Of a stretch of DNA of 64,000 nt, positions 14,597 through 47,679 are shown piece by piece. The stretch is taken from assembly GCA_002436065.1 (NCBI GenBank), contig DIXP01000022.1, forward strand, positions 63,172-127,171, written 5' to 3'. The notes below the pieces were generated by a model. The model saw only the letters and a list, made by a program, of their open reading frames with translations. It ran no database searches and was not told the DNA's origin. Source of the DNA: Chloroflexi bacterium UBA6077 (GTDB lineage Bacteria; Chloroflexota; UBA6077). The position numbers were made by a program, and so were the translations under genes. The first letter of the stretch is position 1. Each line of letters starts with the position of its first letter.

Positions 14597-15151
14597 TCAG
14601 AATTCCACACCCTTCTGGGCAACTACTCCATTCTCGTACGCGTGCTTCACCATTCGCATCTCGGTAACCAGGTCTGCTGCCTCAACAACTTCTGGTGCGG
14701 CACCGCGCCCGGTGAGAACTAGGTGAACTTTCGGATGCTTCTCCTGAATAAGGGCAAGGATTTGTTCGTTGGTAATCAGCTTTGCTTTGACTGCCCCCAA
14801 CACCTCGTCGAGAATCACCAAACGGTATTCCCCAGAACTCACCTTGGTCTTTGCCAACGCCAGGGCTTCCTGGGCCGCATGATGATGCTCCTCAGGAGTA
14901 GCGCGGTTCCACGGGCCCATAGTGAAACCGTGGCCGGTGGTCGTCCATTCGATGTAGGGTGTGAGCTGTTTGGCTGTCTCTTCCTCTCCAGTACACATTG
15001 TGCCCTTGATGAATTGAATGACTGCAACTTTGAACCGGTGCCCCACGGCTCTCATAACCATACCCAAAGCTGCCGTAGTCTTGCCCTTGCCATCACCAGT
15101 AAATACCAGAACCAATCCCTTGGTCTTTGGCGTAGCCTGCGCGGGTGTCAC
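14597..15151 (-). CDS. cobO: ATP:cob(I)alamin adenosyltransferase (CobA/CobO/BtuR type)
   Basis: 184 aa. KGLVLVFTGDGKGKTTAALGMVMRAVGHRFKVAVIQFIKG and LVILDE are diagnostic of the CobA/BtuR family. Confidence 0.85.
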   Translation of the reverse strand: MTPAQATPKTKGLVLVFTGDGKGKTTAALGMVMRAVGHRFKVAVIQFIKGTMCTGEEETAKQLTPYIEWTTTGHGFTMGPWNRATPEEHHHAAQEALALAKTKVSSGEYRLVILDEVLGAVKAKLITNEQILALIQEKHPKVHLVLTGRGAAPEVVEAADLVTEMRMVKHAYENGVVAQKGVEF

Positions 15152-15232
15152 AGTTGCTCTCCTTGGCTAGCTAGAGCCAGAGTCGATAGCCCGAAGTGAT
15201 CCATATAGAGTCGAGAGTAGATGGATGTGGAC

Positions 15233-16414
15233 TTAGGCTATTGCACTCTCAGCCCTAAGCTGGGTTACCCTTTCGTTAGAGTATCCGAGGAGTTCAGTTA
15301 AGATCTCATTAGTATGTTCACCAAGCTGGGGTGGAGCGCTACGGATCGCCGTCCCTGCTTTGGCAAAGCGGTAGGGCATTTCTATGGCGTTTACTGGCCC
15401 GGTGTTGGGGTGAAACATCGTTTTCACCACTTCCCGTGCCATCACGTGAGGATTCTCTAGGGCACGGTCTATCGTATTCACCGGTCCTGCAGGAATGCCT
15501 GCTTCATCGAAGATCTTATCCCATTCATCTGCGGTTTTAGTGCAAAGCTGCGCGCTAATCATGGCGTTGACTCGATCCCGATTCGCCACCCGCTGGGCCA
15601 TTGAATTGAAATCAGGGTCGTCAGCCATCTCGGGCGTAGCCAACAGCTCACAAAACTTGGGCCATTGGCGGTCGTTGACTTGGATGTGGATATATCGACC
15701 ATCGCTGGTTGGATAGTTGGCGCTGGGGACCCGCAAGGGGTGTTCTGAACCTAAACAAGTTGGAATCTCTCCGGTAAAGAAGTAGATGCCGGCAAACATC
15801 GTCATCATCGCCAGGGTGCTGTCTAACATGCTCAATTCTATATACTGGCCTTGGCCGGTTTTTTCACGTCGGTACAGACTAGTAACTATGGAGAAGGCGC
15901 CTAACGATCCACTGAATATGTCGGTAACAGGAACTCCGCACTTCACGGGCTCGCCATCTCGGGGGCCCGTCACGCTCATGAGGCCTGACATTGCCTGAAG
16001 AATGGGATCGTAGGCTCTCCTATCGCGGTACGGCCCGCTCTCGCCGAATCCGGTTATAGAACAGTAGACTATCGATGGGTTGATTGCGGCGAGGGTTTGG
16101 TAGTCGACACCCAGCCTCTGGGGTACACCGGGACCGAAGTTGAGAACTACTACATCAGACTGTCTGGTGAGATCCCATACGGTCTGCTTACCGCCTTCCG
16201 TTTTCAGGTTGATCGCGATACTTCGCTTGCTCCGGTTGACAGAGAAGAAATATCCACTTTCCCCGTTTTTCATTGGAGGGGTTCCTCGTAACTCGTCGCC
16301 GACAAGATCCTCCACTTTGATGACGTTGGCTCCTAACTCGGCCAGCATCATCGTACAATAAGGGCCGGCCAGCACGCGGGTGAGGTCCAGAACTCGTATT
16401 CCAGATAGAGACAT
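15233..16414 (-). CDS. family III (CaiB/BaiF/Frc-type) acyl-CoA transferase, copy A
   Basis: 393 aa. IRVLDLTRVLAGPYCTMMLAELGANVIKVE, FFSVNRSKRS and DPILQAMSGLMSVTG match the family. About two-thirds identical by eye to 45499..46683. Confidence 0.85.
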   Translation of the reverse strand: MSLSGIRVLDLTRVLAGPYCTMMLAELGANVIKVEDLVGDELRGTPPMKNGESGYFFSVNRSKRSIAINLKTEGGKQTVWDLTRQSDVVVLNFGPGVPQRLGVDYQTLAAINPSIVYCSITGFGESGPYRDRRAYDPILQAMSGLMSVTGPRDGEPVKCGVPVTDIFSGSLGAFSIVTSLYRREKTGQGQYIELSMLDSTLAMMTMFAGIYFFTGEIPTCLGSEHPLRVPSANYPTSDGRYIHIQVNDRQWPKFCELLATPEMADDPDFNSMAQRVANRDRVNAMISAQLCTKTADEWDKIFDEAGIPAGPVNTIDRALENPHVMAREVVKTMFHPNTGPVNAIEMPYRFAKAGTAIRSAPPQLGEHTNEILTELLGYSNERVTQLRAESAIA

Positions 16415-16613
16415 GACAGATAGACCTCTCGTCGATAGATATCACCTGAGGGTGGTAAGAACGCCTAATGGAGCCCGACATAGCCGCGACGCGGCGCTAA
16501 GCTCGTGTCACGTGCGCAGAAACAATCTACCTCTTCCAGTGTGTCGGTAGGCTTTCTAAGTAAACAGGGCCGCACGACGAGTCCCGCGCAGCCCTGTTTT
16601 GACCAACTGGCCG

Positions 16614-17408
16614 TTAGCGCCCCTTCCAGATAGGAGCACGCTTTTCCTGGAAGGCCTTTATACCCTCGATAGCGTCTTCACTCGCCTCTAGCTTGTGGAA
16701 CATCAACTCGGCGATGTTATAAGCGTCATCAGACCTCAGATGGAGTGTTCGAAGAGTTACCTCCTTCATAGCCCGAAGCGCTAGTGGCGCATTGGCCAGC
16801 AGTTTATGGGCGTAAGCGAGCGATGCGGACATAGCTTCGCCATCTGGAACCACCTTGTTGACTAATGAGAGATCGTAGGCCTGTTGGGCCGTGATGAGAT
16901 CACCGGTCAACAAGACCTCGAAAGCTTTATTGAGTGGGACGCTACGCGCGAGCATGGTAGGCCCACTGATGGAAGACAGACCTCGCTTCACCTGTGGCCA
17001 TCCGAAAGTGGCCTTCTCGCTGGCGACTCTAATGTCGGAGTTTAGGGCGAGGGCACACCCCTGGGCGAGGCAGTAACCGTTTACAGCCGAGATCATTGGC
17101 TTATAGATGCTGTTCAGAAGACGGTAGAGATCCTGGTGGCTTGGACCCCCTGGAGTCTTATCCAACAGATCATGGCCGGAGCTGAAGGCCGGTCCTCGGC
17201 CCGTAATTATTGCCACCCATAGATCCGGATTGTTGTTGAATTCGGAGAGTGTCTCGTAGAGACGAGTCCGGAGCGCCGCGTTGAGAGCATTCCGCTTCTC
17301 AGGACGATTAAGAGTCAGAATCGCCAGGTGCCCATCAACTTCATACAGTAGCACGTCCTGTCCGCTGGTTGGCGTAGGAGTGGCTGTTGCAGCGTTGTTA
17401 GCCTCCAT
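16614..17408 (-). CDS. enoyl-CoA hydratase/isomerase (crotonase superfamily), copy A1
   Basis: 264 aa. LTLNRPEKRNALN, ITGRGPAFSSGHDL, AVNGYCLAQGCALAL and FGWPQVKRGL match the family. Paralogue of 46720..47514. Confidence 0.85.
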   Translation of the reverse strand: MEANNAATATPTPTSGQDVLLYEVDGHLAILTLNRPEKRNALNAALRTRLYETLSEFNNNPDLWVAIITGRGPAFSSGHDLLDKTPGGPSHQDLYRLLNSIYKPMISAVNGYCLAQGCALALNSDIRVASEKATFGWPQVKRGLSSISGPTMLARSVPLNKAFEVLLTGDLITAQQAYDLSLVNKVVPDGEAMSASLAYAHKLLANAPLALRAMKEVTLRTLHLRSDDAYNIAELMFHKLEASEDAIEGIKAFQEKRAPIWKGR

Positions 17409-17428
17409 TGTTTTCCTCCATCATTATT

Positions 17429-17449
17429 TGCATCAATTTATATGATGCA
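17429..17449 (-). promoter_or_regulatory. AT-rich inverted repeat TGCATCA-N7-TGATGCA, candidate internal operator/promoter
   Basis: Perfect 7-bp arms around tataaat (minus strand), about 20 nt upstream of the GGAGG RBS of the crotonase starting at 17408. Confidence 0.3.
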
Positions 17450-17512
17450 TGCGACAGACCTTCCCCAGGTCTCTCTAGATGTCTGTTTCAACTCTTTGTA
17501 GGTAGTGGGTAC

Positions 17513-18304
17513 CTACTTACCGATGAACTCTGGTTCGCGCTTTTCGATGAAAGCGGCCATGCCCACCTTTTGGTCCTGAGTCGAGAAGCACAAAGCAAAG
17601 AGGTCGACTTCCACTTCACAAGCAGACTCAGTATCAAGGAACATCGATTTGTTCATTGACCGCTTGGCCCCGGCTATGGCGAAAGGCGCCATCTTCGCCA
17701 CGGTTGTCGCCACCTTCATGGCCTCTTCTTGGAGCTGTTCGGCAGGAACCACGGCGCTGACCAGACCCAGCCGTAGGGCTTCTTCCGGGAATATGCGCCT
17801 TCCGGTCAGGATCATCTCCCTTGCGGCCCCCTGGCCCACGATTCGGTGGAGTCTCACTGTTGCACCCCATCCGGGCAGTATCCCAAGTCCTACCTCTGGC
17901 TGCCCGAAGCGAGACTTATCGCTGGCTATGCGGATGTCACAGGCGCACGCCAACTCACATCCCCCACCCAAGGCAACCCCGTTGATGGCAGCGATCACCG
18001 GCTTGTCTATCCATTCGATGAGCTGCAGGAGCTTGTGCCCTCTCCAGGAGAACTCCCTGGCATCAGTAGGCGCCATAGCACTCATCGACTTAATATCGGC
18101 TCCCGCAATGAACGCTCGCTCGCCTACACCGGTAAAGATCACCGCCCGCACTTCCGAATCTCTTGCAGCAGTCTGAAACGCTTCTATGAGATCGTCAATG
18201 ATCGCCGGGTTAAGGGCGTTGTAGGCCTCGGGCCTATCGATGGTTATCCGGAGGACATGCTCGAGTTTCTCCAGCTTGATTTGCCCCGTTTTCATCTTCA
18301 CCAT
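17513..18304 (-). CDS. short-chain enoyl-CoA hydratase (crotonase), copy A2
   Basis: 263 aa. ITIDRPEAYNALN, FTGVGERAFIAGADI, AINGVALGGGCELACACD and FGQPEVGLGILPGWG match the family. Paralogue of 48581..49366. Confidence 0.85.
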   Translation of the reverse strand: MVKMKTGQIKLEKLEHVLRITIDRPEAYNALNPAIIDDLIEAFQTAARDSEVRAVIFTGVGERAFIAGADIKSMSAMAPTDAREFSWRGHKLLQLIEWIDKPVIAAINGVALGGGCELACACDIRIASDKSRFGQPEVGLGILPGWGATVRLHRIVGQGAAREMILTGRRIFPEEALRLGLVSAVVPAEQLQEEAMKVATTVAKMAPFAIAGAKRSMNKSMFLDTESACEVEVDLFALCFSTQDQKVGMAAFIEKREPEFIGK

Positions 18305-18365
18305 CTCCTACGTTTCTTGTGTATATGACTTGGCAAATACGGTGGCGTTCCTCTTCTGCATTGCG

Positions 18366-19556
18366 TTAGCGAAGCAAGTTCTCCACGATGATGGCTGCTC
18401 CCTGGCCGCCCCCAACACACATGCTTGCCATACCCAGTTTGACCTTGCGTCGTGTCATTTCATGTAGCAGTGTTACGAAGATGCGGGCTCCGCTTGCTCC
18501 AACCGGATGGCCGAGGGCGATGGCCCCTCCATTAACGTTTACTCTGGCTGGATCCAGCCCCAATTGGCGGATACAGCCGATCGATTGGGCGGCAAAGGCC
18601 TCGTTCAGCTCGATCAACTCGATGTCGGACAGCTTGAGGTCCGTCTTGTCCAGCACTTTGCGAATCGCATTCACCGGCGCTAAACCCATTATGCGAGGCT
18701 CGATACCGGCCCAAGCGTATCCGATGATCTTTGCCCGGGGCTGGACGCCCAGCTCTTCGGCAGTCTCAGTGCTCATCATGACGACAGCAGCGGCACCGTC
18801 GTTGATCCCTGATGCATTGCCTGCGGTAACAGTGCCACCCGTCTTGAATGCAGGCCGTAACCTGCCTAGCTTCTCTGCGGTCGTCCCCGGGCGAGGGTGC
18901 TCGTCCTTATCCACAACCACAACCTGCCCCTTGGACTGAGGTACTTCGATTGGAACGATCTCCTCGTTGAATAGACCAAGTTCCATAGCCCTGGCAGCCT
19001 TGGCCTGGCTCTCTGCCGCGAAAGCGTCTTGCTCCTCACGCGTGATACTCATCATTTCCGCCACGTTCTCGGCGGTCACTCCCATGTGGATGTTCTCTAT
19101 AGAGCACCACAGTGCCTCTTGAATCATGCTGTCTATGAGCTCACTGTGTCCAAGGCGATAACCGAACCTGGCGCGATTCAACACGTAGGGGGACCGAGAC
19201 ATGCTCTCTGTGCCGCCAGCCACCATGACTCTGGTATCTTCTTGGGCGATGCTCTGAGCGGCCATGCCTATCGCCCGAAGCCCTGAGCCGCATACAAGGT
19301 TGACCGTTGATGCCGTTGACTCGACGGGAATTCCTGCTTTGATGGCTATCTGGCGGGCTACGTTCATCCCAAGCCCGCTTTGCATGACTATGCCCATAAG
19401 CACATCATCTACCTGAGCCGGCTGAACTCCCGCCCTCTTCAACGCTTCGACCACGGCCGCAGTACCCAATTGCTGCGCCGACACCTCAGAGAGTGCCCCT
19501 CCCAGGGTGCCGACAGGGGTGCGAGCAGCACCCACTACTACAACATTAGTTTGCAT
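18366..19556 (-). CDS. acetyl-CoA C-acetyltransferase (thiolase II), copy A
   Basis: ORF 18366..19589. The internal ATG at 19556 gives MQTNVVVVGAARTPVG. Active-site Cys context is [12 protein letters not shown]-terminal [18 protein letters not shown] and CVGGGQGAA are present. Confidence 0.9.
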   Translation of the reverse strand: MQTNVVVVGAARTPVGTLGGALSEVSAQQLGTAAVVEALKRAGVQPAQVDDVLMGIVMQSGLGMNVARQIAIKAGIPVESTASTVNLVCGSGLRAIGMAAQSIAQEDTRVMVAGGTESMSRSPYVLNRARFGYRLGHSELIDSMIQEALWCSIENIHMGVTAENVAEMMSITREEQDAFAAESQAKAARAMELGLFNEEIVPIEVPQSKGQVVVVDKDEHPRPGTTAEKLGRLRPAFKTGGTVTAGNASGINDGAAAVVMMSTETAEELGVQPRAKIIGYAWAGIEPRIMGLAPVNAIRKVLDKTDLKLSDIELIELNEAFAAQSIGCIRQLGLDPARVNVNGGAIALGHPVGASGARIFVTLLHEMTRRKVKLGMASMCVGGGQGAAIIVENLLR

Positions 19557-19612
19557 CCACCGCTCCTTTCTATTGGTAATCGTGTTCAAAGAGAGTTGGC
19601 TATCTTAGAGTT

Positions 19613-21139
19613 TCAGCTTGCATTCGCGGTTGCTCTTTGGCTGCGACCTTTCCATGATTTCCATATAGGGAGCAGTATCGCTACAATAGAGAGCAGCATC
19701 ATGGTGCCGGCGACTGGCCGGGTGAAGAACACAGTCCAATCGTTGTGGTGGGCAATCATGGATGTCATGAATGTGGATTCGGCTAGGGGGCCGAGGATCA
19801 GCCCAAGCACCATGGGCGCTATTGGGTAATCGACCCTCCGCATGAAGTAGCCGATGATCCCGAAGCCAGCCATAATCCAGACATCAGACATGTTGGTGCG
19901 CATGGCAAAGGCACCGAGGAAGCAGAACAGCAGGATGAAGGCAGCCATTATCGACTCTGGTATCTGCATTACCTTTACGAAGAACCGAATCGACAGCAGC
20001 CCGATGAACAACATGAGGATATTGGATACGAACTCTGCCGCGAAGATGGTGTACACCATCTCTTTGCTGGTAATGAAGATCTGAGGGCCCGGCTGAATGC
20101 CGTGGAGTAGGAAGGCTCCCAGAATCAGTGCCGAGGCGCCGCTTCCAGGGATGCCGAGAGTCAAGAGCGGGATCAAGGCTCCGCTGCTGGCGGCGTTGGC
20201 AGCGGCGTTGGGGGCAGCGAGTCCCTCGGGAACACCGGTTCCTAACAAAGCCCTGTTCTTGGAATACTGTTTCTCTACGCCGTACCCGATGAAGGCTGCT
20301 ATCGTAGCGCCAGCACCTGGGACGATACCAATGACCGTACCGATGATTGAGGAGCGCAGCAACACATCCCACAGGCGAGCGATCTCTCGCACTCCTGGGA
20401 TCTCTGCTGCCGCTTTACCTGTGGCAGTCCCGCTTTCGACGGGGAAGCGTTGCTCGAAACGGTCCAACACCTCACCCATGGCGTAGACCCCGATCATTAC
20501 AGGCAGAAAGTCGATCCCGTCCCTCAGTATCGGCGAGCCAAAGGTGAACCTCTCGGCGGCGTACACAACGTCGATCCCAACCGTGGCTAACAACAGCCCT
20601 ATCGAGAGGGAGATCAACGCACTCCGCATGGAACTGGTACCCAGCACAGTGACGCTCATGAGACCGAAGAAGATGATAGAGAAGTACTCCGGCGACGAGA
20701 AGCTGAGGGCTACTTTGGCGAACGGAGGTGACAGGAAGACAAGCACGCATGCGCCGAAGATGCCCCCGATCACAGCGCAGATAATGGCCAACCCGAGGGC
20801 CTTGCCAGCAAAGCCCTTTCGGGCCATGGGATATCCGTCCCATAGGCTCGGGACGTTCTGCGGATCACCAGGAATGTTGAACAGTATTGCGGTGATGGTT
20901 CCCCCAAACACGCCGGAGTGATAGCATGCCACCATTAGCAGGATGGCCGAGGTGGCATCCATTGTGTATGTGAAAGGCAGCATCAGGATGATGGCCATCA
21001 GGGTTGTGATTCCTGGCAAAGCCCCTGCCACGAAACCAATCACGAGGCCGACAATGATCAGACTTAGGTTGAAGGGGCTCACCGCGAGAAGGAAGCCAGC
21101 TCCCAGGTCCTGAAACAGTTCAAGCATGTCATTCCTCAC
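19613..21139 (-). CDS. tctA: tripartite tricarboxylate transporter large permease TctA
   Basis: 508-aa polytopic protein with TctA-type N-terminus (GALPGITTLMAIILMLPFT) and length. Overlaps tctB (ATGA). Confidence 0.8.
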   Translation of the reverse strand: MRNDMLELFQDLGAGFLLAVSPFNLSLIIVGLVIGFVAGALPGITTLMAIILMLPFTYTMDATSAILLMVACYHSGVFGGTITAILFNIPGDPQNVPSLWDGYPMARKGFAGKALGLAIICAVIGGIFGACVLVFLSPPFAKVALSFSSPEYFSIIFFGLMSVTVLGTSSMRSALISLSIGLLLATVGIDVVYAAERFTFGSPILRDGIDFLPVMIGVYAMGEVLDRFEQRFPVESGTATGKAAAEIPGVREIARLWDVLLRSSIIGTVIGIVPGAGATIAAFIGYGVEKQYSKNRALLGTGVPEGLAAPNAAANAASSGALIPLLTLGIPGSGASALILGAFLLHGIQPGPQIFITSKEMVYTIFAAEFVSNILMLFIGLLSIRFFVKVMQIPESIMAAFILLFCFLGAFAMRTNMSDVWIMAGFGIIGYFMRRVDYPIAPMVLGLILGPLAESTFMTSMIAHHNDWTVFFTRPVAGTMMLLSIVAILLPIWKSWKGRSQRATANAS

Positions 21140-21714
21140 ATCATGCCAAGGAGCGAGTAGATCAGCTGGGTTATGCTCTGGAAAGGCTCAATGCCACGTG
21201 GTAGGGATATGTATACGAGTCTGCCGAAGAGGAGCAGCGAGATTACGGTCCCCGCTATGGAGATGAGCAATATGGTAATCGGTCTCCTGAGCCCGCCAAA
21301 GGTGATGAAGGCGAACAGAAAGAGAAAGGCGGCCAAGGCAAATCCAATCACTGGGGCCAAACCGACGAACGTGATAACCGAGACGACTCCTAGCGCCAAG
21401 AGTCTCAAGCTTCTCGGGGTCTGGCCCTCGGCCGCTGATCCAATGGCAACCAAGAGAACTGATCTGCGCTCCCTGATTGCGATGAGGAAATCGGTGACTG
21501 CGGTGACGATGAGGATCACCAGGATGACCGTGGGCCACCAGTCGGGGCCCAAACGACCCTCACGGGCAAAAGAGTGGATATCTTTGGTGAGCAGCAGGAA
21601 GTAAAGCCCAGCTAATACGACAACTGCTGGCCATACAACGGACCCATATCCGCGGAACCTCGAGTTTGGTTGGGACGGTGTCGCGGGACTCGATGAGGTT
21701 GGACCCTTACTCAT
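21136..21714 (-). CDS. tctB: tripartite tricarboxylate transporter small permease TctB
   Basis: ORF 21136..21795. An internal ATG at 21714 is preceded by GAAGGGA. It encodes 4 predicted TM helices and sits between tctC and tctA. Confidence 0.6.
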   Translation of the reverse strand: MSKGPTSSSPATPSQPNSRFRGYGSVVWPAVVVLAGLYFLLLTKDIHSFAREGRLGPDWWPTVILVILIVTAVTDFLIAIRERRSVLLVAIGSAAEGQTPRSLRLLALGVVSVITFVGLAPVIGFALAAFLFLFAFITFGGLRRPITILLISIAGTVISLLLFGRLVYISLPRGIEPFQSITQLIYSLLGMM

Positions 21715-21808
21715 CGCAACATTCCCTTCATGACTAGTCGCGGGAGCGAGACACTCACTGGGTGATGGAATGAGGGGGGCTGGTCTCGCTCCCACATCCC
21801 CTAGGCAA

Positions 21809-22855
21809 TCATTTCTTTGTATTGAGACCGCTCTGCTCTATGACCGCGAGGACTTCGTTTTCATGTTTTGTCAGGTATGCTGGGAATGCATCCGGTCCCA
21901 TCCAGCTCTTCTCATCCGAGTAGGTTTCCTTCAGATAGTCCTTCCACACCTGAGTGCTGCATGCCTTGTTCAGGGCGTCGCCGATCATCTTGATCCGGGT
22001 TGGGTCGGTGCCGGCCTTCGCGACGATGGATCGCCATTGTGGCAGATAGATGTCATAACCCAGCTCTTTGGAGCTAGGGCAGTCTGGGAATGCTGCGGCT
22101 CGCTCCTCGGAGAACATGATCACGGGCTTAAACTGACCACCGGTGAGGTATTGAGTTATGTCCCCACACTGCTCGATAAGAACATCTGCGTGGCCACCTA
22201 AGAGGGACGTGTATCGCTCACCGGGCTGTGGAAAGGGCACTCCCGTCATCTTGACGCCCTTTTTCTCGAAGAACAGCACTAGCAACTCGTCGACGGAGCC
22301 CGCACCAGTAATGGCAACGCGTATCTTGCCAGGATTGGCCTTGGCGGCGGTCTCGACATCCTTCCAGGACTTGTACGGACCGTCGGTCCTGACGAAGAAG
22401 GAGCTAAACTGCTGCATTATTCGGGCGATAGGGGCGAAATCCTTGTGGGTGAAGGGCGCCTGGCCGAAGGCAACGGTGGCGACCTGATCTGCCATGTAGG
22501 CCTCAAAGGCGTAGCCATCGGCTGGTGCAGCGAGCATCTTCACGGTACCAGTGCTGCCCGCAGCTCCTGCTACGTTGATGACAGGCAGAGGGACCCCCAA
22601 CTCCTTCTCTGCCAACGGGGACAACTTCCTGGCCATTTGGTCGGCCCCACCGCCCGCTCCCCAGGGCACGATGAAGTCTATAGGCCGAGTGGGATACTTC
22701 TCAGTCGTTGCCGGGGCCGGTGCTGCTTGTTTCGCGGGGACAGAAGTGGGGGCGGAAGCCGCGGGTGCGCTACATGCGGTAACTCCGAAGAGGCACAAAA
22801 TCACCGCTAAGGGACTAATTACCCTGGCGATTGCTCGGATTTCGACCGTACGCAT
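21809..22855 (-). CDS. tctC: TctC/Bug-family tripartite tricarboxylate transporter substrate-binding lipoprotein
   Basis: Lipobox LFGVTAC, a short Ala/Pro linker, YPTRPIDFIVPWGAGGGADQMAR and the typical Bug-family length. Confidence 0.8.
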   Translation of the reverse strand: MRTVEIRAIARVISPLAVILCLFGVTACSAPAASAPTSVPAKQAAPAPATTEKYPTRPIDFIVPWGAGGGADQMARKLSPLAEKELGVPLPVINVAGAAGSTGTVKMLAAPADGYAFEAYMADQVATVAFGQAPFTHKDFAPIARIMQQFSSFFVRTDGPYKSWKDVETAAKANPGKIRVAITGAGSVDELLVLFFEKKGVKMTGVPFPQPGERYTSLLGGHADVLIEQCGDITQYLTGGQFKPVIMFSEERAAAFPDCPSSKELGYDIYLPQWRSIVAKAGTDPTRIKMIGDALNKACSTQVWKDYLKETYSDEKSWMGPDAFPAYLTKHENEVLAVIEQSGLNTKK

Positions 22856-23122
22856 GATCCAGTCTCCTTCCAACTATGTCTAGAAGAGCTAAACCTGGAT
22901 ACTCCGCCGTGAATGCCAATCCTTATAGCTATATGCAAGGGTTCTCAATCTCCTCTTGCTTTCATCCTCTCCTTTCTAGTTGTGCCGACACCGATATCCG
23001 AGGCATCGGAAGCGCCCACTCCTTGATCAACGACTAATAAGATCTTCCTGAAAAGAAGAACCGGCCTTGGACTTAGCAATAGCTAATCAATGCGATAGGA
23101 CTGGCGGGGTTTCCCCAATTGC

Positions 23123-24532
23123 CTAAGCGTCTACGAGGTGGCGCTTCATGATGCGTAAAGCTGTGTCTGGAGCGATGCCAGCCAATAGACCCATGGCGTA
23201 CATGATGTAGGACTGATCGATAACCATCTTTGGTCTTCTTGGACGCAAAGAAAAGGGATTCGCAGCATCGAACAACGCACTACACAAGACGCCTCGCGGA
23301 TCGCTTCCTCGGGCGAAGATACCACCCGTGCCGATCAAATATTGGACAGTTGTCAGATCCTTTCCATACAGAAGGTTGACTGGCCCTTCTGATGTATAGA
23401 CCATCTCCAACCGTCCCGAGTGGCGCTGCACTGCCACCTCAACTGCCGCCTTGGCCAGAGCTACATCAAGGGCGTAACCCTCCGTTGATTGTGGCACGGT
23501 CGATGTCTCGCGGGTCAACCTATCGATGGCCGTATGAATTTGTTCCGGTGAAGCCCCGCACTGGACGGCAATGGCATCGGCACCAACCGCCTCGAGTATC
23601 GAAACAGCGTTGTATCGGAGTCCTAGATCGCCCTCGACAGTGCGCTTGGCAAAGGGCTCGGGCAACCCTTTCGGTAACCATGAGGTGTCACTGGGGTGAC
23701 CATGAGCTACAGAATGAACGTCGGTTGTAGCCCCGCCAACATCCACGACAACGAGATCGCCGAGCCCCTGTTCCTTAGGACTACCCTGGGCCAATAACGT
23801 TGCTGCCTGGAGTACCGCCATTGGGGTTGGCATCAGGATGTCGCCAATCAGGTCCCGCACGCGGTGTATGCCTTTGGCCTCGACGATGCGCCGCATGAAG
23901 ACTTCGCGAATAGCTGCCCGCGCAGGTTCGACGTTGAGCCGACCGAGTTCCGGCATCACGTTCTCGGTTACCACGATTTCTTTGTTCTCAGCCTGGAGGA
24001 GGTCCTCTGCATCTTCACTGGCATCGCTGTTTCCGGCGTAAAGAATGGGACAGGTGAGGGTAGAGCCAGCCAACATGCGGGCATTGAAGAGAATGACCTC
24101 AGCATCACCACCATCTGTCCCGCCTGCCAGCAGAATAATCTCTGGGCGCAACTCCTCCAGCCAGGCGATATCGCGGCGTCGAAGATGGTAGGAAAAGGCG
24201 CGCAACACCTTTGCCCCCGCGCCCAAGGCGGCACGCTTAGCGGCTTCGGCAGTGAGTTCAGGCACCAGACCGATAGCCACCATCCGAAGTCCTCCTGCGG
24301 CGCTACTTGACGCCAGGAATCGGCACTCCTCGAGGTTGGTCAGCCCCAGTTCTTTGCGTACCTGATTGAGGGCTGACTGCAGACCGACCATCACGTTGGT
24401 ATCGACCGTGGATGGTGATTGGACTCGCGCCAGAAGCTGCTCGGCCGAAACATCGACCGCGACGGCCTTTGTATAGGTACTGCCAAAATCGATCAATAGA
24501 GCGAGGCCCATTAGCTGAGACCTAAATCGCAC
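23123..24532 (-). CDS. glmL: GlmL/MutL-type mutase accessory (reactivase-like) protein
   Basis: 469 aa. LLIDFGSTYTKAVAVD and VVDVGGATTDVHSV are ASKHA-fold phosphate motifs typical of methylaspartate-mutase accessory protein GlmL. An alternative ATG start at 24511 overlaps the glmS stop by 1 nt. Confidence 0.75.
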   Translation of the reverse strand: MRFRSQLMGLALLIDFGSTYTKAVAVDVSAEQLLARVQSPSTVDTNVMVGLQSALNQVRKELGLTNLEECRFLASSSAAGGLRMVAIGLVPELTAEAAKRAALGAGAKVLRAFSYHLRRRDIAWLEELRPEIILLAGGTDGGDAEVILFNARMLAGSTLTCPILYAGNSDASEDAEDLLQAENKEIVVTENVMPELGRLNVEPARAAIREVFMRRIVEAKGIHRVRDLIGDILMPTPMAVLQAATLLAQGSPKEQGLGDLVVVDVGGATTDVHSVAHGHPSDTSWLPKGLPEPFAKRTVEGDLGLRYNAVSILEAVGADAIAVQCGASPEQIHTAIDRLTRETSTVPQSTEGYALDVALAKAAVEVAVQRHSGRLEMVYTSEGPVNLLYGKDLTTVQYLIGTGGIFARGSDPRGVLCSALFDAANPFSLRPRRPKMVIDQSYIMYAMGLLAGIAPDTALRIMKRHLVDA

Positions 24533-24972
24533 TTCAAGTCGGCGATAGCGGTTTCGGGCTTCGTTCCCGGTGGGTAGATACGATCAAAACCCATATCTGA
24601 GAAGAGTTGCTCTGTCTTGGGCCATTCTTCAGGGTCAGTCACCAGTATCCCGCCGATGTAGAGAAGGATGTTGGCTAGCCCGGCCTCCCGGCACTTGGCG
24701 CGCAGGCCCTCGCAGTCGATACGTGCCATTCCGTACAGGGACGATACTAGGATTGCGTCGGCTGCCGTTTCCCTGGCTGCACTGATGAACTCGTTGGGCA
24801 GGACCAGGGCTCCGAGATATGCAACTCTGAATCCGGCGCGCTCGAAGGCCCAGCGTAATATCGAAATTCCAGCTACATGGGCATCGAGCCCGATAGTACC
24901 CAGGACAATGGTCGGCTGCCGCTTCGCATCCGCCATTCCAGTACTACCTTTCTGAGTTACCGCGTCATTCAT
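24511..24972 (-). CDS. glmS: B12-binding small subunit of a glutamate-mutase-family enzyme (GlmS/MutS-like)
   Basis: 153 aa. TIVLGTIGLDAHVAGISIL (DxHxxG), ADAILVSSLYG (SxL) and ILLYIGG are present. Collinear with Clostridium MutS as far as I recall that sequence. Confidence 0.85.
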   Translation of the reverse strand: MNDAVTQKGSTGMADAKRQPTIVLGTIGLDAHVAGISILRWAFERAGFRVAYLGALVLPNEFISAARETAADAILVSSLYGMARIDCEGLRAKCREAGLANILLYIGGILVTDPEEWPKTEQLFSDMGFDRIYPPGTKPETAIADLKCDLGLS

Positions 24973-24994
24973 AGCTCAACCATCCTTTCCAGGC

Positions 24995-26473
24995 TCAGTA
25001 TGGTCGCTCCGCCGCCTCTTCTGAGAGTGGCCGAGATGCCCAGGTGGGAATCTGAATCACCCAGTCTAGATCTGCTGTGGTGTTTTCCCTTCGCTCCCTC
25101 TCCGCTATTCGGGACCGATGGTATTCGATCACTTCTGGCGGAAGCGGGACATTACCGTGATCCAGATATCGCACGGCGCCTCGTGCATCGCGGACGAGCT
25201 TGACCTGCGACCGGAGCGGCAACCAGGGCGAGAAGACGGTGTCTAATACTCCTGCCTCAACGGCGCGGCAGGCCCCGAGGGCAACATCTCCATCGCCGAG
25301 CTCCAGTACCTTTTCAAGGATTGCGCGCGCTTCCTTCTCGATCATTTCGCGTTCGAGACTCAGTTCCTCGCTCTCAGGGAGTCGCTGGCCTTTCAAGAGC
25401 CGCGCGATTTGAGCCGCTACTAGCATGGCCTCGCGATTGCCCTTACCTGTTACGGTAGTCCGGGCCTCGTCGGGAGACTTGATTTGACAGCCATTGCAGC
25501 CGGCCAGGGCAGCTACCGCAGTGTTCCAGGCAATCTGTCCAGCCATGGATATGGGCTCCCTCGGCCAATCGCCTACGTAGTTGTAGGCCCACGGGTACAC
25601 ATGCACGTTATGGAAACCAAACCGTTCGAAGTATTCCGGAGCAAGCTTGCTGACGACTTGGATGCCTGCGACGTCTTGAACCATGCCCATCCCCGTAGCG
25701 ATGCCCAAATCCATATACTTGGTGCCCTGCGCTGCAGCCAGGAGACCTTGGATCACCCCTACCGCCACCTTGAAGCCAAGGGTATCCCAGCCAGACAGGT
25801 TAGCGAAGTCACGTCTAAGGATAGGAACGCCACGTTCGTTGAAGTATGCGGTAAGGCGATCTATGTACTGATGGTTGTAGATCATCAATTCCAGAGGATA
25901 GTCTCGAGAGTGTTGAATGACTTGCTCGATACTCTTTATCGTTCCACAGGTCCAGCCGCCTGCGAGCGCAATTTCCCAGGCTAGGCGCGCGTCCTCGTCA
26001 TTGCCATCGGTGGATAGTGGAACTGTAGTGGACTCATTTAGTGCGCGAGCCCCTGCCACACCGTGTAGCACGATTGGGTACCCGTTTAAGTACGAAAAGC
26101 CATCGCGACGGCTGCGCTCTATGGCATCCTGTGATTTCGCGAACTGGCACTTACGGGAATAGGTGTCGGTGAAAACGTGCCAGCGGTCTGGTTTGAGATC
26201 CTCAGACTCATGGATATGATCGCTTACCTGCTCGACCAATGCGTGTCCGCAAGATGGAACGAGCTGTAGACGGTCCTCCTTCATTGCCTGTTCGTTGCGA
26301 AGAGATGCGAACTTCCACCATGGCTGTTCTCGCTGGCGGGCTACGCTTTCATCGAGCGTTGCCGGATCCATAAGTTCATCGCCTGTTGGCCATTGCCGGA
26401 GAACCTCGTGTCGGACAGTGAGGAAATAGTCCCAATCCCACTGGTCCATTCGCACATTAGTCGCCAGCGCCAT
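24995..26473 (-). CDS. GlmE/MutE-family adenosylcobalamin mutase large subunit, divergent substrate pocket
   Basis: ORF 24995..26491. An ATG at 26473 is preceded by GGAGGG. RHEVLRQWPTG, YLNGYP and the C-terminal ~110 aa (LLKGQRLPES...GDGDVALGACRAVEAGVLD...VRYLDHGNVPLP) match GlmE. The canonical glutamate-binding residues appear replaced (see findings). Confidence 0.75.
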   Translation of the reverse strand: MALATNVRMDQWDWDYFLTVRHEVLRQWPTGDELMDPATLDESVARQREQPWWKFASLRNEQAMKEDRLQLVPSCGHALVEQVSDHIHESEDLKPDRWHVFTDTYSRKCQFAKSQDAIERSRRDGFSYLNGYPIVLHGVAGARALNESTTVPLSTDGNDEDARLAWEIALAGGWTCGTIKSIEQVIQHSRDYPLELMIYNHQYIDRLTAYFNERGVPILRRDFANLSGWDTLGFKVAVGVIQGLLAAAQGTKYMDLGIATGMGMVQDVAGIQVVSKLAPEYFERFGFHNVHVYPWAYNYVGDWPREPISMAGQIAWNTAVAALAGCNGCQIKSPDEARTTVTGKGNREAMLVAAQIARLLKGQRLPESEELSLEREMIEKEARAILEKVLELGDGDVALGACRAVEAGVLDTVFSPWLPLRSQVKLVRDARGAVRYLDHGNVPLPPEVIEYHRSRIAERERRENTTADLDWVIQIPTWASRPLSEEAAERPY

Positions 26474-26579
26474 AATGTGCCCTCCAATCAATCAATTACT
26501 TAGCTTGCGTGGTACAGCGCGTACTTTCACCCACTCCGGACCTAGAAGCGACTGAAGACAGATACAGCTTGATTGCCTG

Positions 26580-27752
26580 TCATGGAGCCCATGATTGCTG
26601 GTCTACTACCATCTGAGGCACCCGTTCAAGGTCTGGGACGGCTTGGAACTCCGGGTCCACGACAACTCCTCCTGGTGCTGAGATCAAGGGCCGTCGGAGA
26701 ATCGATGTCTGGAGCTTCAAGAAACCGTTCATCTCTCCCGCAGTCTTGATTCCCAACCCTACAGCCGCTGAAGCCTCTTGGTGGCATCCGATTTCGCCAG
26801 ACACGCCGTTACCCAGGACTACCGTGAGGCCCAAACGCTTTGCCAGGGCAACCTGTTCGCCCAGAAGCCGAACGCCTCCTGACTTCATGAGCTTGAACTT
26901 GACGAACTGGGCACAGCCGAGAGCCGCCGTACGCTCAACGTCTTCCGTCCCGAGAATCGATTCATCCAGCATTAGGGGAAGTGGTGAGATGCGCGACAGT
27001 GATACCTGAGACTCCCAATCACCTGCTGGGAAGGGCTGTTCGAATAGTTCTATAGCTTCGGGAGTCACCTTCTGCACGAATTCCCGAGCGTCATCGAAGG
27101 AATAACCCTGATTAGCATCGATCCGGATCAGTGTGCCTGGGGCTTGCCTGGCCAGTTCCTGGATTAAGGTAACGCGATGGATATCAAGGCTGACGTCGAA
27201 GCCTACCTTGACCTTGATGGTAGTGTACTTTCGCTCTATTTGGGTCCAGAAGCCTGACTCTAGCTCTGGTTCGTGCTCTGCAGATAGGAGGCCTACCAGG
27301 GGTACCAGGGCCGAAGGGACTACCTTTGGCTCGTCACCACTCGGGATACGTCGCGACACCAGTTCTAACGCGGTCATCAAAGGAGAAACGGGATATCCCC
27401 CGTGTGCGGCATAGGGGAGGATGCTCTCGATGGCAGTCTCTGGCGACATGCCGACTACTTTGGGACCGTGAGCGCACAGAAAATCCCATATGTCCTCGGC
27501 ACTCTCGGGGACGTAGCCTTGACACGCTGTGACTTCGCCCCAGGCTGTGCGCCCATCTTCCGTACGCACTTGGATAAGAAACGTGTCGAAACTGTGGAAG
27601 GTGGCGAAGGACAAATGGTAGGGCTCTTTAAGGGGTTGCTTCATCCTGTAGAGGTCGACCGCAACGATTGGGTGTGTCTCCTCGCGCCTACGGTCGTAAT
27701 GGGTGTGGAGATGGCCTTGCGAATTCGAATCCTTGTAGTTCTCTGTCAACAC
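26580..27752 (-). CDS. enolase-superfamily enzyme, muconate-lactonizing (MLE) subgroup (dipeptide-epimerase/racemase-like)
   Basis: 390 aa. Motifs are TIKVKVG (KxK), IRIDANQGY (metal Asp), LFEQPFP (metal Glu), LMLDESI (metal Asp) and KFKLMKSGG (second catalytic Lys). GTG start is preceded by GTGAGGTGA. Confidence 0.75.
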   Translation of the reverse strand: MLTENYKDSNSQGHLHTHYDRRREETHPIVAVDLYRMKQPLKEPYHLSFATFHSFDTFLIQVRTEDGRTAWGEVTACQGYVPESAEDIWDFLCAHGPKVVGMSPETAIESILPYAAHGGYPVSPLMTALELVSRRIPSGDEPKVVPSALVPLVGLLSAEHEPELESGFWTQIERKYTTIKVKVGFDVSLDIHRVTLIQELARQAPGTLIRIDANQGYSFDDAREFVQKVTPEAIELFEQPFPAGDWESQVSLSRISPLPLMLDESILGTEDVERTAALGCAQFVKFKLMKSGGVRLLGEQVALAKRLGLTVVLGNGVSGEIGCHQEASAAVGLGIKTAGEMNGFLKLQTSILRRPLISAPGGVVVDPEFQAVPDLERVPQMVVDQQSWAP

Positions 27753-28008: not shown

Positions 28009-28265
28009 TCATCCCCTTTGATGGGTGCAGAAAGGGGCCTGGATTCGCCAGGCAATGGAGGGACTTCATCTCTTGACACACCCCCAGGCGTGTCCTATCA
28101 TAATGCCCGGCGTAAACGACATATTGTTGTCGATAAGGCTGTCTGGCTGGATGACTCGCCATAGTACGAGTATGAGTTTCTGGTGGTCATCGGTGTCGTG
28201 ATTGCCTGACGCCCAATCGATAAGGTAATAATTGAGAAGTACAGTTCCAAAGATCGGTGAGGATT

Positions 28266-29390
28266 ATGCCTGAGCTTGGTGTAGACAACGACACTCGTTT
28301 AGAGATCATGCGTTTCATAGCAGAGATGGATAGTCCTATTGGTGCAGATGCTCTTGCAAGCCTGTTAAAAGATCGCGGAATAAGTCTCACTTCAACTGCC
28401 GTTCGTTACCATCTACGGATGTTGGATCAACAGGGTTTTACCTCGCGAATTGGCAAGCAAGGAAGAGTGATCACATCAAGAGGATGGGACGAATTACAGC
28501 GTTCTCGTGTTGATGCTCGGATGCAGCAAGGACTTGCAGTTTACGAGACGGCGGCACAGGTGGCGGCTCTGGGGTGGGCAAAGGGAAATGGGCATGTTGT
28601 CGGGGCGCTCACAATCTTCCCTACCGAAGAACTCTCCACAGTACTTCTGTATGCAGTCAAGAGCTGTCGGGCTGGTTTGTGCATAAGCGATAGAATGGCA
28701 CTGCTGAAGAGTGGCGATAAGTTCGGCACGAAAGTGATACCTCCAGATAAGACGGGAATAGTAACTGTTGCTACAACCGGCATCGATGGTTTCCTGTTGT
28801 CTAACGGTGTCTTGTTTCGACCTACCTTCGGTGGCATTGTCGAAGTCATAGACTGGCATCCATATCGTTTCGTTGACATCGTGGATTTTGGTCGGGGAAC
28901 TCGCGCTCCTGTGGATATACTGATCTCCTCCGGTAGCACACATTTGCTGGGAATCATAGAGAAAGGCAATGGTCTCTTGCTGGCAGACATACGGGAGATA
29001 ATAGGTGCAGCCAGGGAGCATGTGCTACGCCTTTTGCGCGACATAGAGACGTATGGCCTGGGTGGCGTGCTGATGGTCGGACAGATCGGGCAGCCAGTGA
29101 TGGGCGTTCCAGTGCAGCAGCATACGTTTGGGGTGGCAATGATTGCAGGTATCAATCCTACCGTTGCTGCTTTCGAGGCTGGTGTATCGGCAGAGTATTC
29201 GCTGAACCAGGGAATGATAGACTTTGCATCCCTTCGCTCAGTAGAGCAGTTGGCGCCTACCCTGTTCGATAGGAATCAGTTGGCAGTGGGTGGGCGACTG
29301 GTAATATGGGAGCAGACTGAGCAGGTATCTCTAGATAGGGGGCACCATCTCCGCCAAGAAAGTCGACACGATCTAGAGATACCTGCTTAG
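28266..29390 (+). CDS. NrpR-like transcriptional regulator (winged HTH + DUF128/NrpR regulatory domain), copy 1
   Basis: ORF 28257..29390. DNDTRLEIMRFIAEMDSPIGADALASLLKDRGISLTSTAVRYHLRMLDQQGFTSRIGKQGRVITSRGWDEL matches the N-terminal pattern of methanogen NrpR (AVRYHLK.LD..G...KVG..GR.IT.KG). ATG at 28266 follows GGTGAGGA. Confidence 0.75.
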   Translation: MPELGVDNDTRLEIMRFIAEMDSPIGADALASLLKDRGISLTSTAVRYHLRMLDQQGFTSRIGKQGRVITSRGWDELQRSRVDARMQQGLAVYETAAQVAALGWAKGNGHVVGALTIFPTEELSTVLLYAVKSCRAGLCISDRMALLKSGDKFGTKVIPPDKTGIVTVATTGIDGFLLSNGVLFRPTFGGIVEVIDWHPYRFVDIVDFGRGTRAPVDILISSGSTHLLGIIEKGNGLLLADIREIIGAAREHVLRLLRDIETYGLGGVLMVGQIGQPVMGVPVQQHTFGVAMIAGINPTVAAFEAGVSAEYSLNQGMIDFASLRSVEQLAPTLFDRNQLAVGGRLVIWEQTEQVSLDRGHHLRQESRHDLEIPA

Positions 29391-45498: not shown

Positions 45499-46683
45499 TC
45501 AGCCGATGACGCCTTCTGCCCTCAGTCGGGCCACCTCCTCCTTCGTATAGCCGAGAAGCCCCTGGAGGACCTCCTCGGTGTGCTCGCCGAGCAGGGGAGG
45601 GGCGCTACGAATATTGGTCCCCGCCTCGGCGAAACGATATGGCATGTCCACAGCCTTCACAGGGCCGGCGATGGGGTGAAGGAACTGCTTCACCATCTCG
45701 CGCGCCAGCACCTGGGGGTCGGTCAGCGCCCTATCCATGCTGTTTACAGGGCCAGCCGGCAGGCCGGCCTCATCGAATATCTGGTCCCATTCCTCTGCTG
45801 TCCTGGTGGCCAGGCATCGTGCGATTAGGGCGTTCACCTCCTCGCGATGATCGACCCTGAGTTGGGTATTCGCGAACCGGGGGTCCGACGCAGCTTCGGG
45901 GGCCCCCAGAACCTCGCAGAACTTGGCCCACTGGCGGTCGTTGACCGTGATGTGGAGGTAGCGGCCATCCCTGGTGGGGTAGTTTGCGCTGGGGACGCGG
46001 GTCGGGTTCTCCGAGCCGAAGAGCGTGGGCACTTCGCCCGCGCACAGGTAGATGGCCGATTGGAAGGTAAGCATGGCCAGGGAGCTATCGAGCATCGCGA
46101 GGTCTATGTACTGCCCTCGACCCGTCATAGCTCGACGATAGAGGCTGGCGGCCACCGAGAAGGCCCCGAAGACCGCCGCCACCACATCGACAATCGCCGC
46201 GCCGCACTTGACCGGCTCGCCATCGCGCGGCCCGGTGATGCTCATCAGCCCCGACATGGCCTGGAGAATGGGGTCGTACGCCTTTCGATCCTTGTACGGC
46301 CCCGTGTCTCCGAAGCCCGTTATCGAACAGTAGACCAGCGAGGGGTTGATGGCGGAGAGGGTGCCGTAATCGACGCCTAGCCGCCGCGGAACCCCGGGCG
46401 CGAAGTTAACCAGCACCACGTCTGCCTTGGCGGCGAGGTCCCGGACTATGCTCTTCGCCCCGGGCGCCTTGAGGTTGATGGTGACGCTACGCTTGCTTCG
46501 GTTCACGGAGAAGAAGTAGCCGCTCTGGCCGTTGACGTAAGGGGCCCACGCCCTGGATTCGTCCCCGACGCCGGGCTCCTCGATCTTGATGACGTCGGCT
46601 CCCAACTCCGCCAGCATCATGGAGCAGTAGGGACCCGCCAGCACCCTGGTGAAATCCAGGACCGTCACCCCTGAGAAAGTCAT
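45499..46683 (-). CDS. family III acyl-CoA transferase, copy B
   Basis: 394 aa. VTVLDFTRVLAGPYCSMMLAELGADVIKIE matches the family. Collinear paralogue of 15233..16414. Confidence 0.85.
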   Translation of the reverse strand: MTFSGVTVLDFTRVLAGPYCSMMLAELGADVIKIEEPGVGDESRAWAPYVNGQSGYFFSVNRSKRSVTINLKAPGAKSIVRDLAAKADVVLVNFAPGVPRRLGVDYGTLSAINPSLVYCSITGFGDTGPYKDRKAYDPILQAMSGLMSITGPRDGEPVKCGAAIVDVVAAVFGAFSVAASLYRRAMTGRGQYIDLAMLDSSLAMLTFQSAIYLCAGEVPTLFGSENPTRVPSANYPTRDGRYLHITVNDRQWAKFCEVLGAPEAASDPRFANTQLRVDHREEVNALIARCLATRTAEEWDQIFDEAGLPAGPVNSMDRALTDPQVLAREMVKQFLHPIAGPVKAVDMPYRFAEAGTNIRSAPPLLGEHTEEVLQGLLGYTKEEVARLRAEGVIG

Positions 46684-46719
46684 TGCCTCCCCACCTCCCG
46701 ATCAGTGAGACTAGTTTGA

Positions 46720-47514: not shown

Positions 47515-47679
47515 CTAATACTATTTGGCTTTGGTATGTCTTAGGCTGGTCCTTCCGCCAAATCTATATCGCTTTCCGAGGTAGTGAGCCCGATCACTTC
47601 AGTGTCGGGCTCATGCCCATGGCGAAGCTGCTACGGAATTGGTGGACAGACCAGTTAGGCCGGTTCTGTGGATCGCTGC

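Follow-up and report, generated by a model that had tools for sequence, protein, structure and literature searches.

A candidate composite catabolic operon around a divergent glutamate-mutase-like protein in an uncultured Chloroflexota bacterium

Which substrate is rearranged by a B12-dependent mutase whose genes lie beside those of a carboxylate transporter and of CoA-dependent enzymes, and do all of these genes serve one pathway? This question is raised by a block of 12 consecutive open reading frames (ORFs), all on the minus strand at 14597-27752, in a 64,000-nucleotide stretch of Chloroflexi bacterium UBA6077 (contig DIXP01000022.1), which is called the window here. Judged by its active-site residues, the catalytic subunit of the mutase, designated GlmE*, is demonstrably not a canonical glutamate mutase, and it most likely rearranges another, imported carboxylic acid because the residues that hold glutamate are lost. 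On balance, we slightly favour the view that GlmE* and its partner GlmS form a third substrate class of free-acid adenosylcobalamin (AdoCbl)-dependent carbon-skeleton mutases. This class would act on a non-amino carboxylic acid (e.g. glutarate to methylsuccinate, or alkylmalonate to alkylsuccinate) and anchor an unrecognised B12-dependent catabolism of C5/C6 dicarboxylates with a wide distribution among soil Proteobacteria, Eremiobacterota and Chloroflexota; it is set apart from 2-methyleneglutarate mutase by description only. More tentatively, and with a little less than even confidence, we propose that the whole block reached this uncultured Chloroflexota by horizontal transfer and works as a composite operon of three modules for the catabolism of a C5/C6 dicarboxylate or similar acid.

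The 12 minus-strand genes, their coordinates and the families named in the original prediction were all confirmed by the ORF list and by profile searches, in which Pfam gathering cut-offs and NCBIfam equivalog cut-offs were used for the family calls. The components of the tripartite tricarboxylate transporter (TTT), namely TctC, TctB and TctA, are adjacent, and each scored above its Pfam gathering cut-off. The features of the locus are as follows.

28257..29390, plus strand: NrpR-like transcription regulator NrpR_A, divergent from the block (PF01995 182 bits, and PF08461)
26580..27752, minus strand: enolase-superfamily protein, MLE subgroup (MR_MLE_C 93 bits)
24995..26491, minus strand: GlmE*, catalytic (epsilon) subunit of an AdoCbl carbon-skeleton mutase, divergent clade (PF06368, Met_asp_mut_E, 314 bits)
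24511..24972, minus strand: GlmS, B12-binding (sigma) subunit (NF002612 171 bits, cut-off 110)
23123..24532, minus strand: GlmL/MutL accessory protein, presumed chaperone or reactivase (NF040745 600 bits, cut-off 475; PF13941 567 bits)
21809..22873, minus strand: TctC periplasmic binding protein of the TTT transporter (PF03401)
21136..21795, minus strand: TctB small membrane subunit (PF07331)
19613..21139, minus strand: TctA large membrane subunit (PF01970 482 bits)
18366..19589, minus strand: short-chain thiolase Thl_A (Thiolase_N and Thiolase_C; TIGR01930 478 bits, cut-off 240)
17513..18304, minus strand: canonical crotonase/enoyl-CoA hydratase ECH1_A (PF00378, ECH_1; best NCBIfam model, short-chain enoyl-CoA hydratase)
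16614..17408, minus strand: crotonase-fold protein ECH2_A (ECH_1; neither hydratase glutamate)
15233..16414, minus strand: family-III CoA-transferase CoAT_A, dicarboxylate (SUGCT-like) type (PF02515, CoA_transf_3, 431 bits)
14597..15151, minus strand: CobO/CobA ATP:cob(I)alamin adenosyltransferase (PF02572 211 bits; TIGR00708 183 bits, cut-off 167.75)
45499..50633, minus strand: paralogous cassette of thiolase, ECH1, 3-hydroxyacyl-CoA dehydrogenase (Hbd), ECH2 and CoA-transferase (Pfam; host-like composition)

Active site and distribution of the GlmE* clade

GlmE* is a member of the PF06368 family and aligns with the solved glutamate mutases 1cb7_B and 6h9e_B at E-values of 1e-73 to 1e-75, and its identity to canonical glutamate mutases is 32-37%. 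On TIGR01503, the GlmE equivalog of NCBIfam, it scored 300.3 bits, which is under the cut-off of 390.1, whereas GlmS passes its equivalog cut-off and carries the DxHxxG motif as GLDAHVAG. Thus, of the parts that accompany a glutamate mutase, both the B12-binding S subunit and the GlmL accessory protein are present. In glutamate mutase, the migrating glycyl moiety is held by R66, R149 and E171 and the stationary acrylate half by R100 and Y177, as described in a crystallographic paper (PMC10947579). When residues were mapped by alignment to 1cb7/6h9e (C. cochlearium structure), which was gap-free through the active-site segments, GlmE* was found to carry the replacements R66S, R149D, E171T, Y177Q and Y181H, and to retain R100 together with the adenosyl-ribose contacts K326 and E330. 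R100 alone therefore remains of the arginine claw R66/R100/R149, and Glu171, which contacts the substrate amino group, is Thr in GlmE* as in 77 of the 84 clade members. The same pattern runs through the clade, with Asp at position 149 in every member (84/84), Gln at position 66 in 75 and Arg at position 100 in 83 of the 84, Gln or Glu at position 177, and His at position 181. Read with the published roles of these residues, the pattern shows that GlmE* keeps the scaffold, the handling of the cofactor and the half-site for acrylate, and that its pocket is remodelled where the migrating group is bound. The mechanism would be that of glutamate mutase, yet three defining features of the family are absent. 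The original prediction had named an organic or amino acid as the substrate; an amino acid is disfavoured, as the amino-group-binding E171 is lost.

The clade is tight. Its members are 51-72% identical to GlmE*, and named members come from Bradyrhizobium, Burkholderiales, Casimicrobiaceae, Hyphomicrobiales, Baltobacteraceae and Chloroflexota. Because the mean column identity is 69%, many columns are invariant and the named lineages are so spread, the clade can be regarded, from its sequences, as functional and widespread. The database names would make GlmE* an ordinary glutamate mutase for glutamate catabolism or for the formation of 3-methylaspartate, and this explanation draws on the JGI name 'methylaspartate mutase epsilon subunit' of many clade members, on the scores of GlmS and GlmL above their equivalog cut-offs and on the common fold family. 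However, GlmE* itself falls under its equivalog cut-off, all three glycyl-binding residues are replaced clade-wide, no methylaspartate ammonia-lyase family protein is present, and the NCBI records read 'hypothetical protein'. An ordinary glutamate mutase is thus largely refuted by the sequence evidence, and we consider it very improbable.

The enolase-superfamily gene upstream of GlmE* also does not provide the ammonia-lyase. Its sole significant Pfam match is MR_MLE_C (MR_MLE_N reached 21.4 bits, under the 22-bit cut-off), and an alignment with 2p88, an N-succinyl amino acid racemase, places the KxK motif, the D/E/D metal ligands and the Lys of the second face in matching positions, with the motifs IKVKVG, RIDANQG, FEQP, LMLDES and FKLMKSGG in register, as expected of the MLE subgroup. 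The protein is 38-39% identical to MR_MLE genes adjoining GlmE* in two related loci (L007 and L032). Neither this gene nor any other window gene scanned matched methylaspartate ammonia-lyase (MAAL_N/MAAL_C), CoAT_A reached 285 bits on the mesaconate CoA-transferase equivalog NF041294 (cut-off 700), and no class-I fumarase was found in the window. The methylaspartate pathway or cycle was rejected on the active-site residues, on the equivalog score and on the lack of the ammonia-lyase. The profile, residue and literature searches returned no match to that route or to another textbook pathway, which agrees with what had been predicted from the sequence.

Other members of PF06368 also depart from the known enzyme. 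In a library of 1.84 billion proteins, the family falls into 571 clusters at 50% identity, several of which are other divergent clades, and it appears from these sequences to hold several uncharacterised specificities. For example, P0127 and similar PF06368 proteins of 630-660 aa carry a B12 domain fused to the N terminus and differ again in their pocket residues, and in P0127 the position of Arg100 reads Lys within a DSYTK motif. A Chloroflexota metagenome-assembled genome (MAG) encodes a GlmE*-GlmS fusion of 695 aa (P0086, L001 3808-5895), which is followed by an Sdh-type flavoprotein. Two fused family members of 583-602 aa were considered as 2-methyleneglutarate mutase and rejected, since they keep the glutamate-type residues and are probably fused glutamate mutases.

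Composition, layout and paralogy of the block

The window is part of a 127-kb contig of JGI metagenome 3300002498, and the same contig was recovered in assemblies of several sequencing runs. The housekeeping protein YchF is 89% identical to its counterpart in a Chloroflexota MAG and about 55% identical to those of Dehalococcoidia and Thermomicrobia, which places the host among the Chloroflexota. The base composition bears on whether the block is one unit. The G+C content at third codon positions (GC3) is 0.49-0.70 in the 12 block genes and NrpR_A, compared with 0.75-0.87 in host and flanking genes, and NrpR_A itself, at 0.49, marks the minimum of this island. The composition changes sharply at two points, between hpt and cobO (14.59 kb) and past NrpR_A (29.4 kb). 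These values suggest that the 12 genes and the regulator arrived together from a lower-GC donor, and the block was probably acquired as a unit. The shared composition in turn supports functional coherence, although the arrangement is unique in our sample. At the island borders, no tRNA genes, integrase or notable flanking direct or inverted repeats were found, and borders of a mobile element were rejected because there is no tRNA gene and no notable flanking repeat. A 20-nt inverted repeat is present at the 3' end of NrpR_A (29317-29390).

Most genes of the block are closely packed. When the longest ORFs are taken, the GlmS and GlmL genes overlap, as do those of TctB and TctA (by 4 nt), the small gaps are 13, 22, 23, 61, 81 and 88 nt, and the large gaps are 249 nt (glmL-tctC), 104 nt (between the two crotonases) and 199 nt (crotonase-CoA-transferase); on this basis, the junction lengths given in the original prediction hold. 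The gene-caller starts on the same contig shift slightly for a few of the genes, with the start of GlmE* at 26473. No minus-strand intrinsic-terminator-like site lies within any intergenic gap of the block, and a single weak promoter-like site lies across the start of tctC. We infer co-transcription from this layout, and the unity of the block appears to be backed by the absence of intergenic terminators and by the single divergent regulator as well as by composition. Control by a B12 riboswitch or another RNA was also considered, but an Rfam scan of the whole window gave only an unrelated T-box. In the divergent intergenic region between the MR_MLE gene and NrpR_A (about 27975-28015), a perfect palindrome with a 14-bp stem, CCGATTTCGCGGCC-GAAT-TGGCCGCGAAATCGG, could be an operator or a hairpin.

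The second half of the block has a close counterpart in the same window. At 45499-50633, a paralogous cassette with its own divergent NrpR has the order thiolase, ECH1, Hbd, ECH2 and CoA-transferase, and its GC3 is host-like (0.82-0.87). Compared with these paralogues, Thl_A is 69% identical (49437-50633), ECH1_A 74% (48581-49366), ECH2_A 75% (46720-47514) and CoAT_A 67% (45499-46683), and NrpR_A is 53% identical to the second NrpR (50975-52030), which lies divergently upstream of the paralogous cassette. The focal cassette is without Hbd, and the 104-nt gap between its crotonases occupies the position that Hbd has in the paralogue. ECH1_A is a canonical crotonase with both catalytic Glu motifs (GGGCE and GQPE). 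In ECH2_A the corresponding motifs are AQGCA and GWPQ, where GGGCE and xPE are expected, and neither glutamate is found in either ECH2 copy; ECH2 is therefore not a standard hydratase, and a decarboxylase- or isomerase-type role is suspected from its motifs. An ECH2 homologue with 59% identity in a Clostridia MAG has ACAD-ETF (acyl-CoA dehydrogenase, ACAD), a CoA-transferase and Hbd-Crt-Thl as neighbours. The name 'E-phenylitaconyl-CoA hydratase', which JGI gives to a few ECH2 homologues, could not be verified and was set aside.

CoAT_A scored best in NCBIfam on succinate-glutarate CoA-transferase (330 bits, cut-off 750), followed by mesaconate CoA-transferase. Among solved structures, the best match was 10uh (307 bits; deposited as 'Formyl-coenzyme a transferase'), and human SUGCT (9br7) reached 276 bits, compared with a weak 166 bits for benzylsuccinate CoA-transferase (9fn0_B). 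Profile searches found neither an ACAD nor a short-chain dehydrogenase/reductase (SDR) in the 12-gene block, and a bbs-type gene set is thus not present. The block had been predicted to be a self-contained catabolic module. This claim has to be given up, since no dehydrogenase is encoded in it, the paralogue carries Hbd, and relatives pair the mutase with an ACAD or with a complex resembling succinate dehydrogenase (Sdh-like).

Related loci and a tentative pathway

To compare gene neighbourhoods, 23 usable loci with clade members were obtained from a metagenome scan and 10 contig look-ups, and 21 of these were counted for frequencies; neighbouring genes were labelled by tblastn with Pfam-annotated seed proteins. 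A single-protein scan of GTDB genomes gave one locus only. The recurrent core is GlmE*-GlmS, plus GlmL and the TTT transporter: GlmS is present in 90% of the loci counted, and GlmL (13/21) and TctC in 62% each. The focal TctC is 37-47% identical to the TctC adjoining GlmE* in 12 other loci and 31-32% identical to the three other TctC genes of the window, and TctA is 45-52% identical to the TctA of related loci. By these identities, TctC and the MR_MLE protein look orthologous across loci. The full 12-gene arrangement was found in none of the 23 loci. Conservation of the whole block, which had been put forward as a check, was therefore not seen, and because of this the block is better described as a composite in which cobO is joined to two modules that are conserved independently of each other. 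De novo clustering of the neighbouring ORFs was noisy in this high-GC DNA and gave no further recurrent family.

These data also bear on a second explanation, in which adjacent independent units (the mutase with its transporter, the beta-oxidation-type cassette, and cobO) happen to lie on one strand and share no joint pathway. Such an arrangement agrees with the absence of the block from all 23 related loci, with the occurrence of the cassette by itself elsewhere in the window and of a similar one in the Clostridia MAG, and with the 249-nt and 199-nt gaps and the promoter-like site at tctC. However, the 12 genes and NrpR_A share one atypical composition with sharp boundaries, terminator-like sites are absent from all gaps, the relatives of the mutase are also tied to CoA activation and to a crotonase, and CobO is functionally sensible only alongside the mutase. 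We therefore think it unlikely that the units are independent, and the composite operon is kept as the working proposal.

The neighbours of GlmE* elsewhere give some indication of the chemistry. In the 21 loci counted, an Sdh-like four-subunit complex occurs in 8, in 6 of which it is accompanied by an AMP-forming CoA ligase and a crotonase, and genes for MarR, an aldehyde dehydrogenase and a ComA-like protein often lie ahead of the complex. In 7 loci there is a family-III CoA-transferase and/or an ACAD, mostly together with an AcuI-type reductase, and the two sets are mutually exclusive in the loci counted. Because of this either/or pattern, the situation reads most simply as a succinate-type alpha,beta-dehydrogenation of the product or substrate of the mutase, which is then followed by hydration. 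In locus L010, the mutase adjoins both Sdh and a class-I fumarase; MmgE/PrpD is found near the mutase in L009, L039, L042 and L045, and MR_MLE proteins recur occasionally. A tightly conserved operon was seen in soil metagenomes and Baltobacteraceae (L007, L015, L016, L046 and L049, about 1.5-10 kb downstream of GlmE*) with the order GlmE*-GlmS-MarR-(NMT1)-aldehyde dehydrogenase-ComA-like-SdhC/B/A-AMP ligase-crotonase, in which the ComA-like member belongs to the phosphosulfolactate-synthase family and is missing from L046.

From these observations, we infer a substrate, a reaction direction and an order of steps. First, in the module of MR_MLE, GlmE*, GlmS, GlmL and TctCBA, the TTT transporter would take up either an acid X-CH2-CH2-COO(-) or the branched isomer, CH3-CH(X)-COO(-), and GlmE*S would interconvert the two isomers by the glutamate-mutase mechanism, with Arg100 holding the acrylate-type half and with a migrating group X that, given the rebuilt pocket, would not be glycyl. 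The MLE-type enzyme, a two-lysine acid/base catalyst, may racemise or isomerise the substrate or product at the carbon alpha to the carboxylate, or it may shift a double bond. Second, in the module that is a copy of the host-type cassette, the SUGCT-like CoA-transferase would activate the dicarboxylate, ECH2 would catalyse a decarboxylation or isomerisation, and ECH1 and the thiolase would finish a beta-oxidation-like cleavage to acetyl-CoA, with the dehydrogenase steps borrowed from elsewhere, e.g. from the Hbd of the paralogous cassette. Third, CobO would supply adenosylcobalamin, and GlmL would maintain the mutase. NrpR_A probably regulates the unit.

For the substrate pair, methylsuccinate/glutarate is our best guess and the leading candidate, based on the Sdh-or-ACAD pattern in relatives, the glutarate-type CoA-transferase and the recurrence of MmgE/PrpD. 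Aerobic relatives from soil would form a substituted succinate with the mutase and then dehydrogenate it in one of two ways: the Sdh-like complex would act on the free acid, or ACAD on the CoA ester. In published work (PMC12290011), one member of the MmgE/PrpD family proved to be a methylsuccinate isomerase. Alternative substrates are 2-oxo-, 2-hydroxy- and 2-methylene-glutarate, alkylmalonates and sulfonated acids. Levulinate, which would be converted to 2-methylacetoacetate and would explain a thiolase without a dehydrogenase, was ranked low, as CoAT_A is a dicarboxylate-type enzyme and Sdh-like complexes are found in relatives.

Several points weigh against this proposal. To our knowledge, no enzyme has been described in which a carboxymethyl group migrates. 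Furthermore, a dicarboxylate such as glutarate or methylsuccinate would not be expected where two of the three arginines of the claw are lost, and their part would have to be played by other conserved basic residues (K173, R183 and H181). The window genes scanned include no acyl-CoA dehydrogenase and no Sdh-like complex, so the methylsuccinate/glutarate route needs genes that were not seen there. In some relatives, sulfonate-related neighbours (ComA-like, TauD, TauE and NMT1) hint at other chemistry. As to the operon, the 249-nt and 199-nt gaps and the weak promoter-like site at tctC permit separate transcripts. Furthermore, CoAT_A is only about 30% identical to the CoA-transferases adjoining GlmE* elsewhere, and the thiolase, ECH2, CobO and NrpR were never found beside GlmE* in the other loci examined, and for these reasons the link between the mutase/TTT module and the cassette rests on one contig.

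Some of the relatives point to another kind of substrate, namely a 2-substituted glutarate with a carbonyl or alkene in the migrating group. The mutase would then convert 2-oxoglutarate to 3-methyloxaloacetate, 2-hydroxyglutarate to 3-methylmalate or 2-methyleneglutarate to 3-methylitaconate, and the MR_MLE protein would be a dehydratase or delta-isomerase. In a Bradyrhizobium MAG (L006 9041-9871), an aspartate dehydrogenase equivalog (450 bits, cut-off 253) lies directly upstream of GlmE*. The closest relative of GlmE* (L047, 72% identity) shares GlmS alone with the focal block and has an oxaloacetate-decarboxylase-like HMGL/PYC_OADA gene 3' of GlmS. The class-I fumarase of L010 and a methylisocitrate-lyase-like gene adjoining the island can be counted on the same side, as can two pieces of background: archaeal NrpR senses 2-oxoglutarate, and acid catalysis at the carbonyl oxygen, for which Asp149 would be available here, speeds 1,2-acyl shifts. 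However, every one of these supporting neighbours was seen in one locus only, the prpB-like gene is host-like in composition and lies outside the island, and the migrating groups keep a carboxylate, so that R66 and R149 would be expected to stay. Overall, a 2-substituted glutarate is distinctly unlikely in our judgement, and methylsuccinate/glutarate is retained as the leading candidate.

Two further loci of the window are also of interest. Next to the island, a long co-directional array on the minus strand (29525-45340) contains the methylisocitrate-lyase-like gene, GntR, DUF6282, CMD, three MmgE/PrpD paralogues, a 745-aa OYE/FadH-type flavoenzyme, three TctC genes and TctBA. No NCBIfam model matched the three PrpD proteins, and from its gene content this array looks like a second uncharacterised carboxylate-catabolic locus. 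The T-box leader from the Rfam scan (RF00230, 103.6 bits; 58107-58368, minus strand) lies directly upstream of an Aconitase-X gene (56728-58110, minus strand; PF04412, 485 bits), which seems an unusual target for tRNA-sensing control.

Significance and comparison with known systems

In the literature, we found no characterised GlmE-like mutase with another substrate and no such gene combination, and to the best of our knowledge only two free-acid AdoCbl mutases have been characterised, both of which were discovered decades ago. A conserved clade that combines the glutamate-mutase scaffold with a rebuilt pocket for the migrating group indicates a radical rearrangement that has yet to be described, and a step that is missing from the known turnover of dicarboxylates in the environment. 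The clade is present in many soil lineages, its members regularly carry the wrong name 'methylaspartate mutase' or just the label 'hypothetical', and we believe that membership in PF06368 alone should not be taken as sufficient for annotation as a glutamate mutase. The interest of this locus thus stems from the mutase clade and not from the layout of the operon.

Compared with glutamate mutase GlmES/MutES plus GlmL (EC 5.4.99.1; Clostridium cochlearium and C. tetanomorphum), the present system has the same PF06368 TIM-barrel E subunit and DxHxxG S subunit. In contrast to that enzyme, to which GlmE* is 32-37% identical, the substitutions are R66 to S/Q, R149 to D, E171 to T, Y177 to Q/E and Y181 to H, and the focal block is without methylaspartate ammonia-lyase and is tied to a TTT transporter and CoA-dependent enzymes. 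The only other free-acid AdoCbl carbon-skeleton mutase known to us is 2-methyleneglutarate mutase (EC 5.4.99.4) of nicotinate fermentation in Eubacterium barkeri. This enzyme is a single fused polypeptide, its substrate holds a stationary acrylate-type half, and in its pathway an isomerase and then a PrpB/ICL-family lyase follow. A PrpB-like gene likewise adjoins the focal island, but nicotinate-pathway genes are absent among the window genes scanned. Clostridial thl-crt-hbd and bbs-type beta-oxidation resemble the cassette in the thiolase, the crotonase, the Hbd (in the paralogue) and a family-III CoA-transferase ahead. In contrast to the bbs-type system, there is no acyl-CoA dehydrogenase, BbsCD-type SDR or BbsA partner, the focal cassette is without Hbd, and ECH2 is without the hydratase glutamates. 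Finally, the methylsuccinate genes of the itaconate cluster described by Gonner et al. (2025, PMC12290011) encode a dicarboxylate CoA-transferase, an acyl-CoA dehydrogenase and an MmgE/PrpD isomerase that act on C5 branched dicarboxylates. Although that pathway is without a B12 mutase and the CoA-transferases here score far below the equivalog cut-offs, the same enzyme families, compared by family only, flank GlmE* in many of the related loci.

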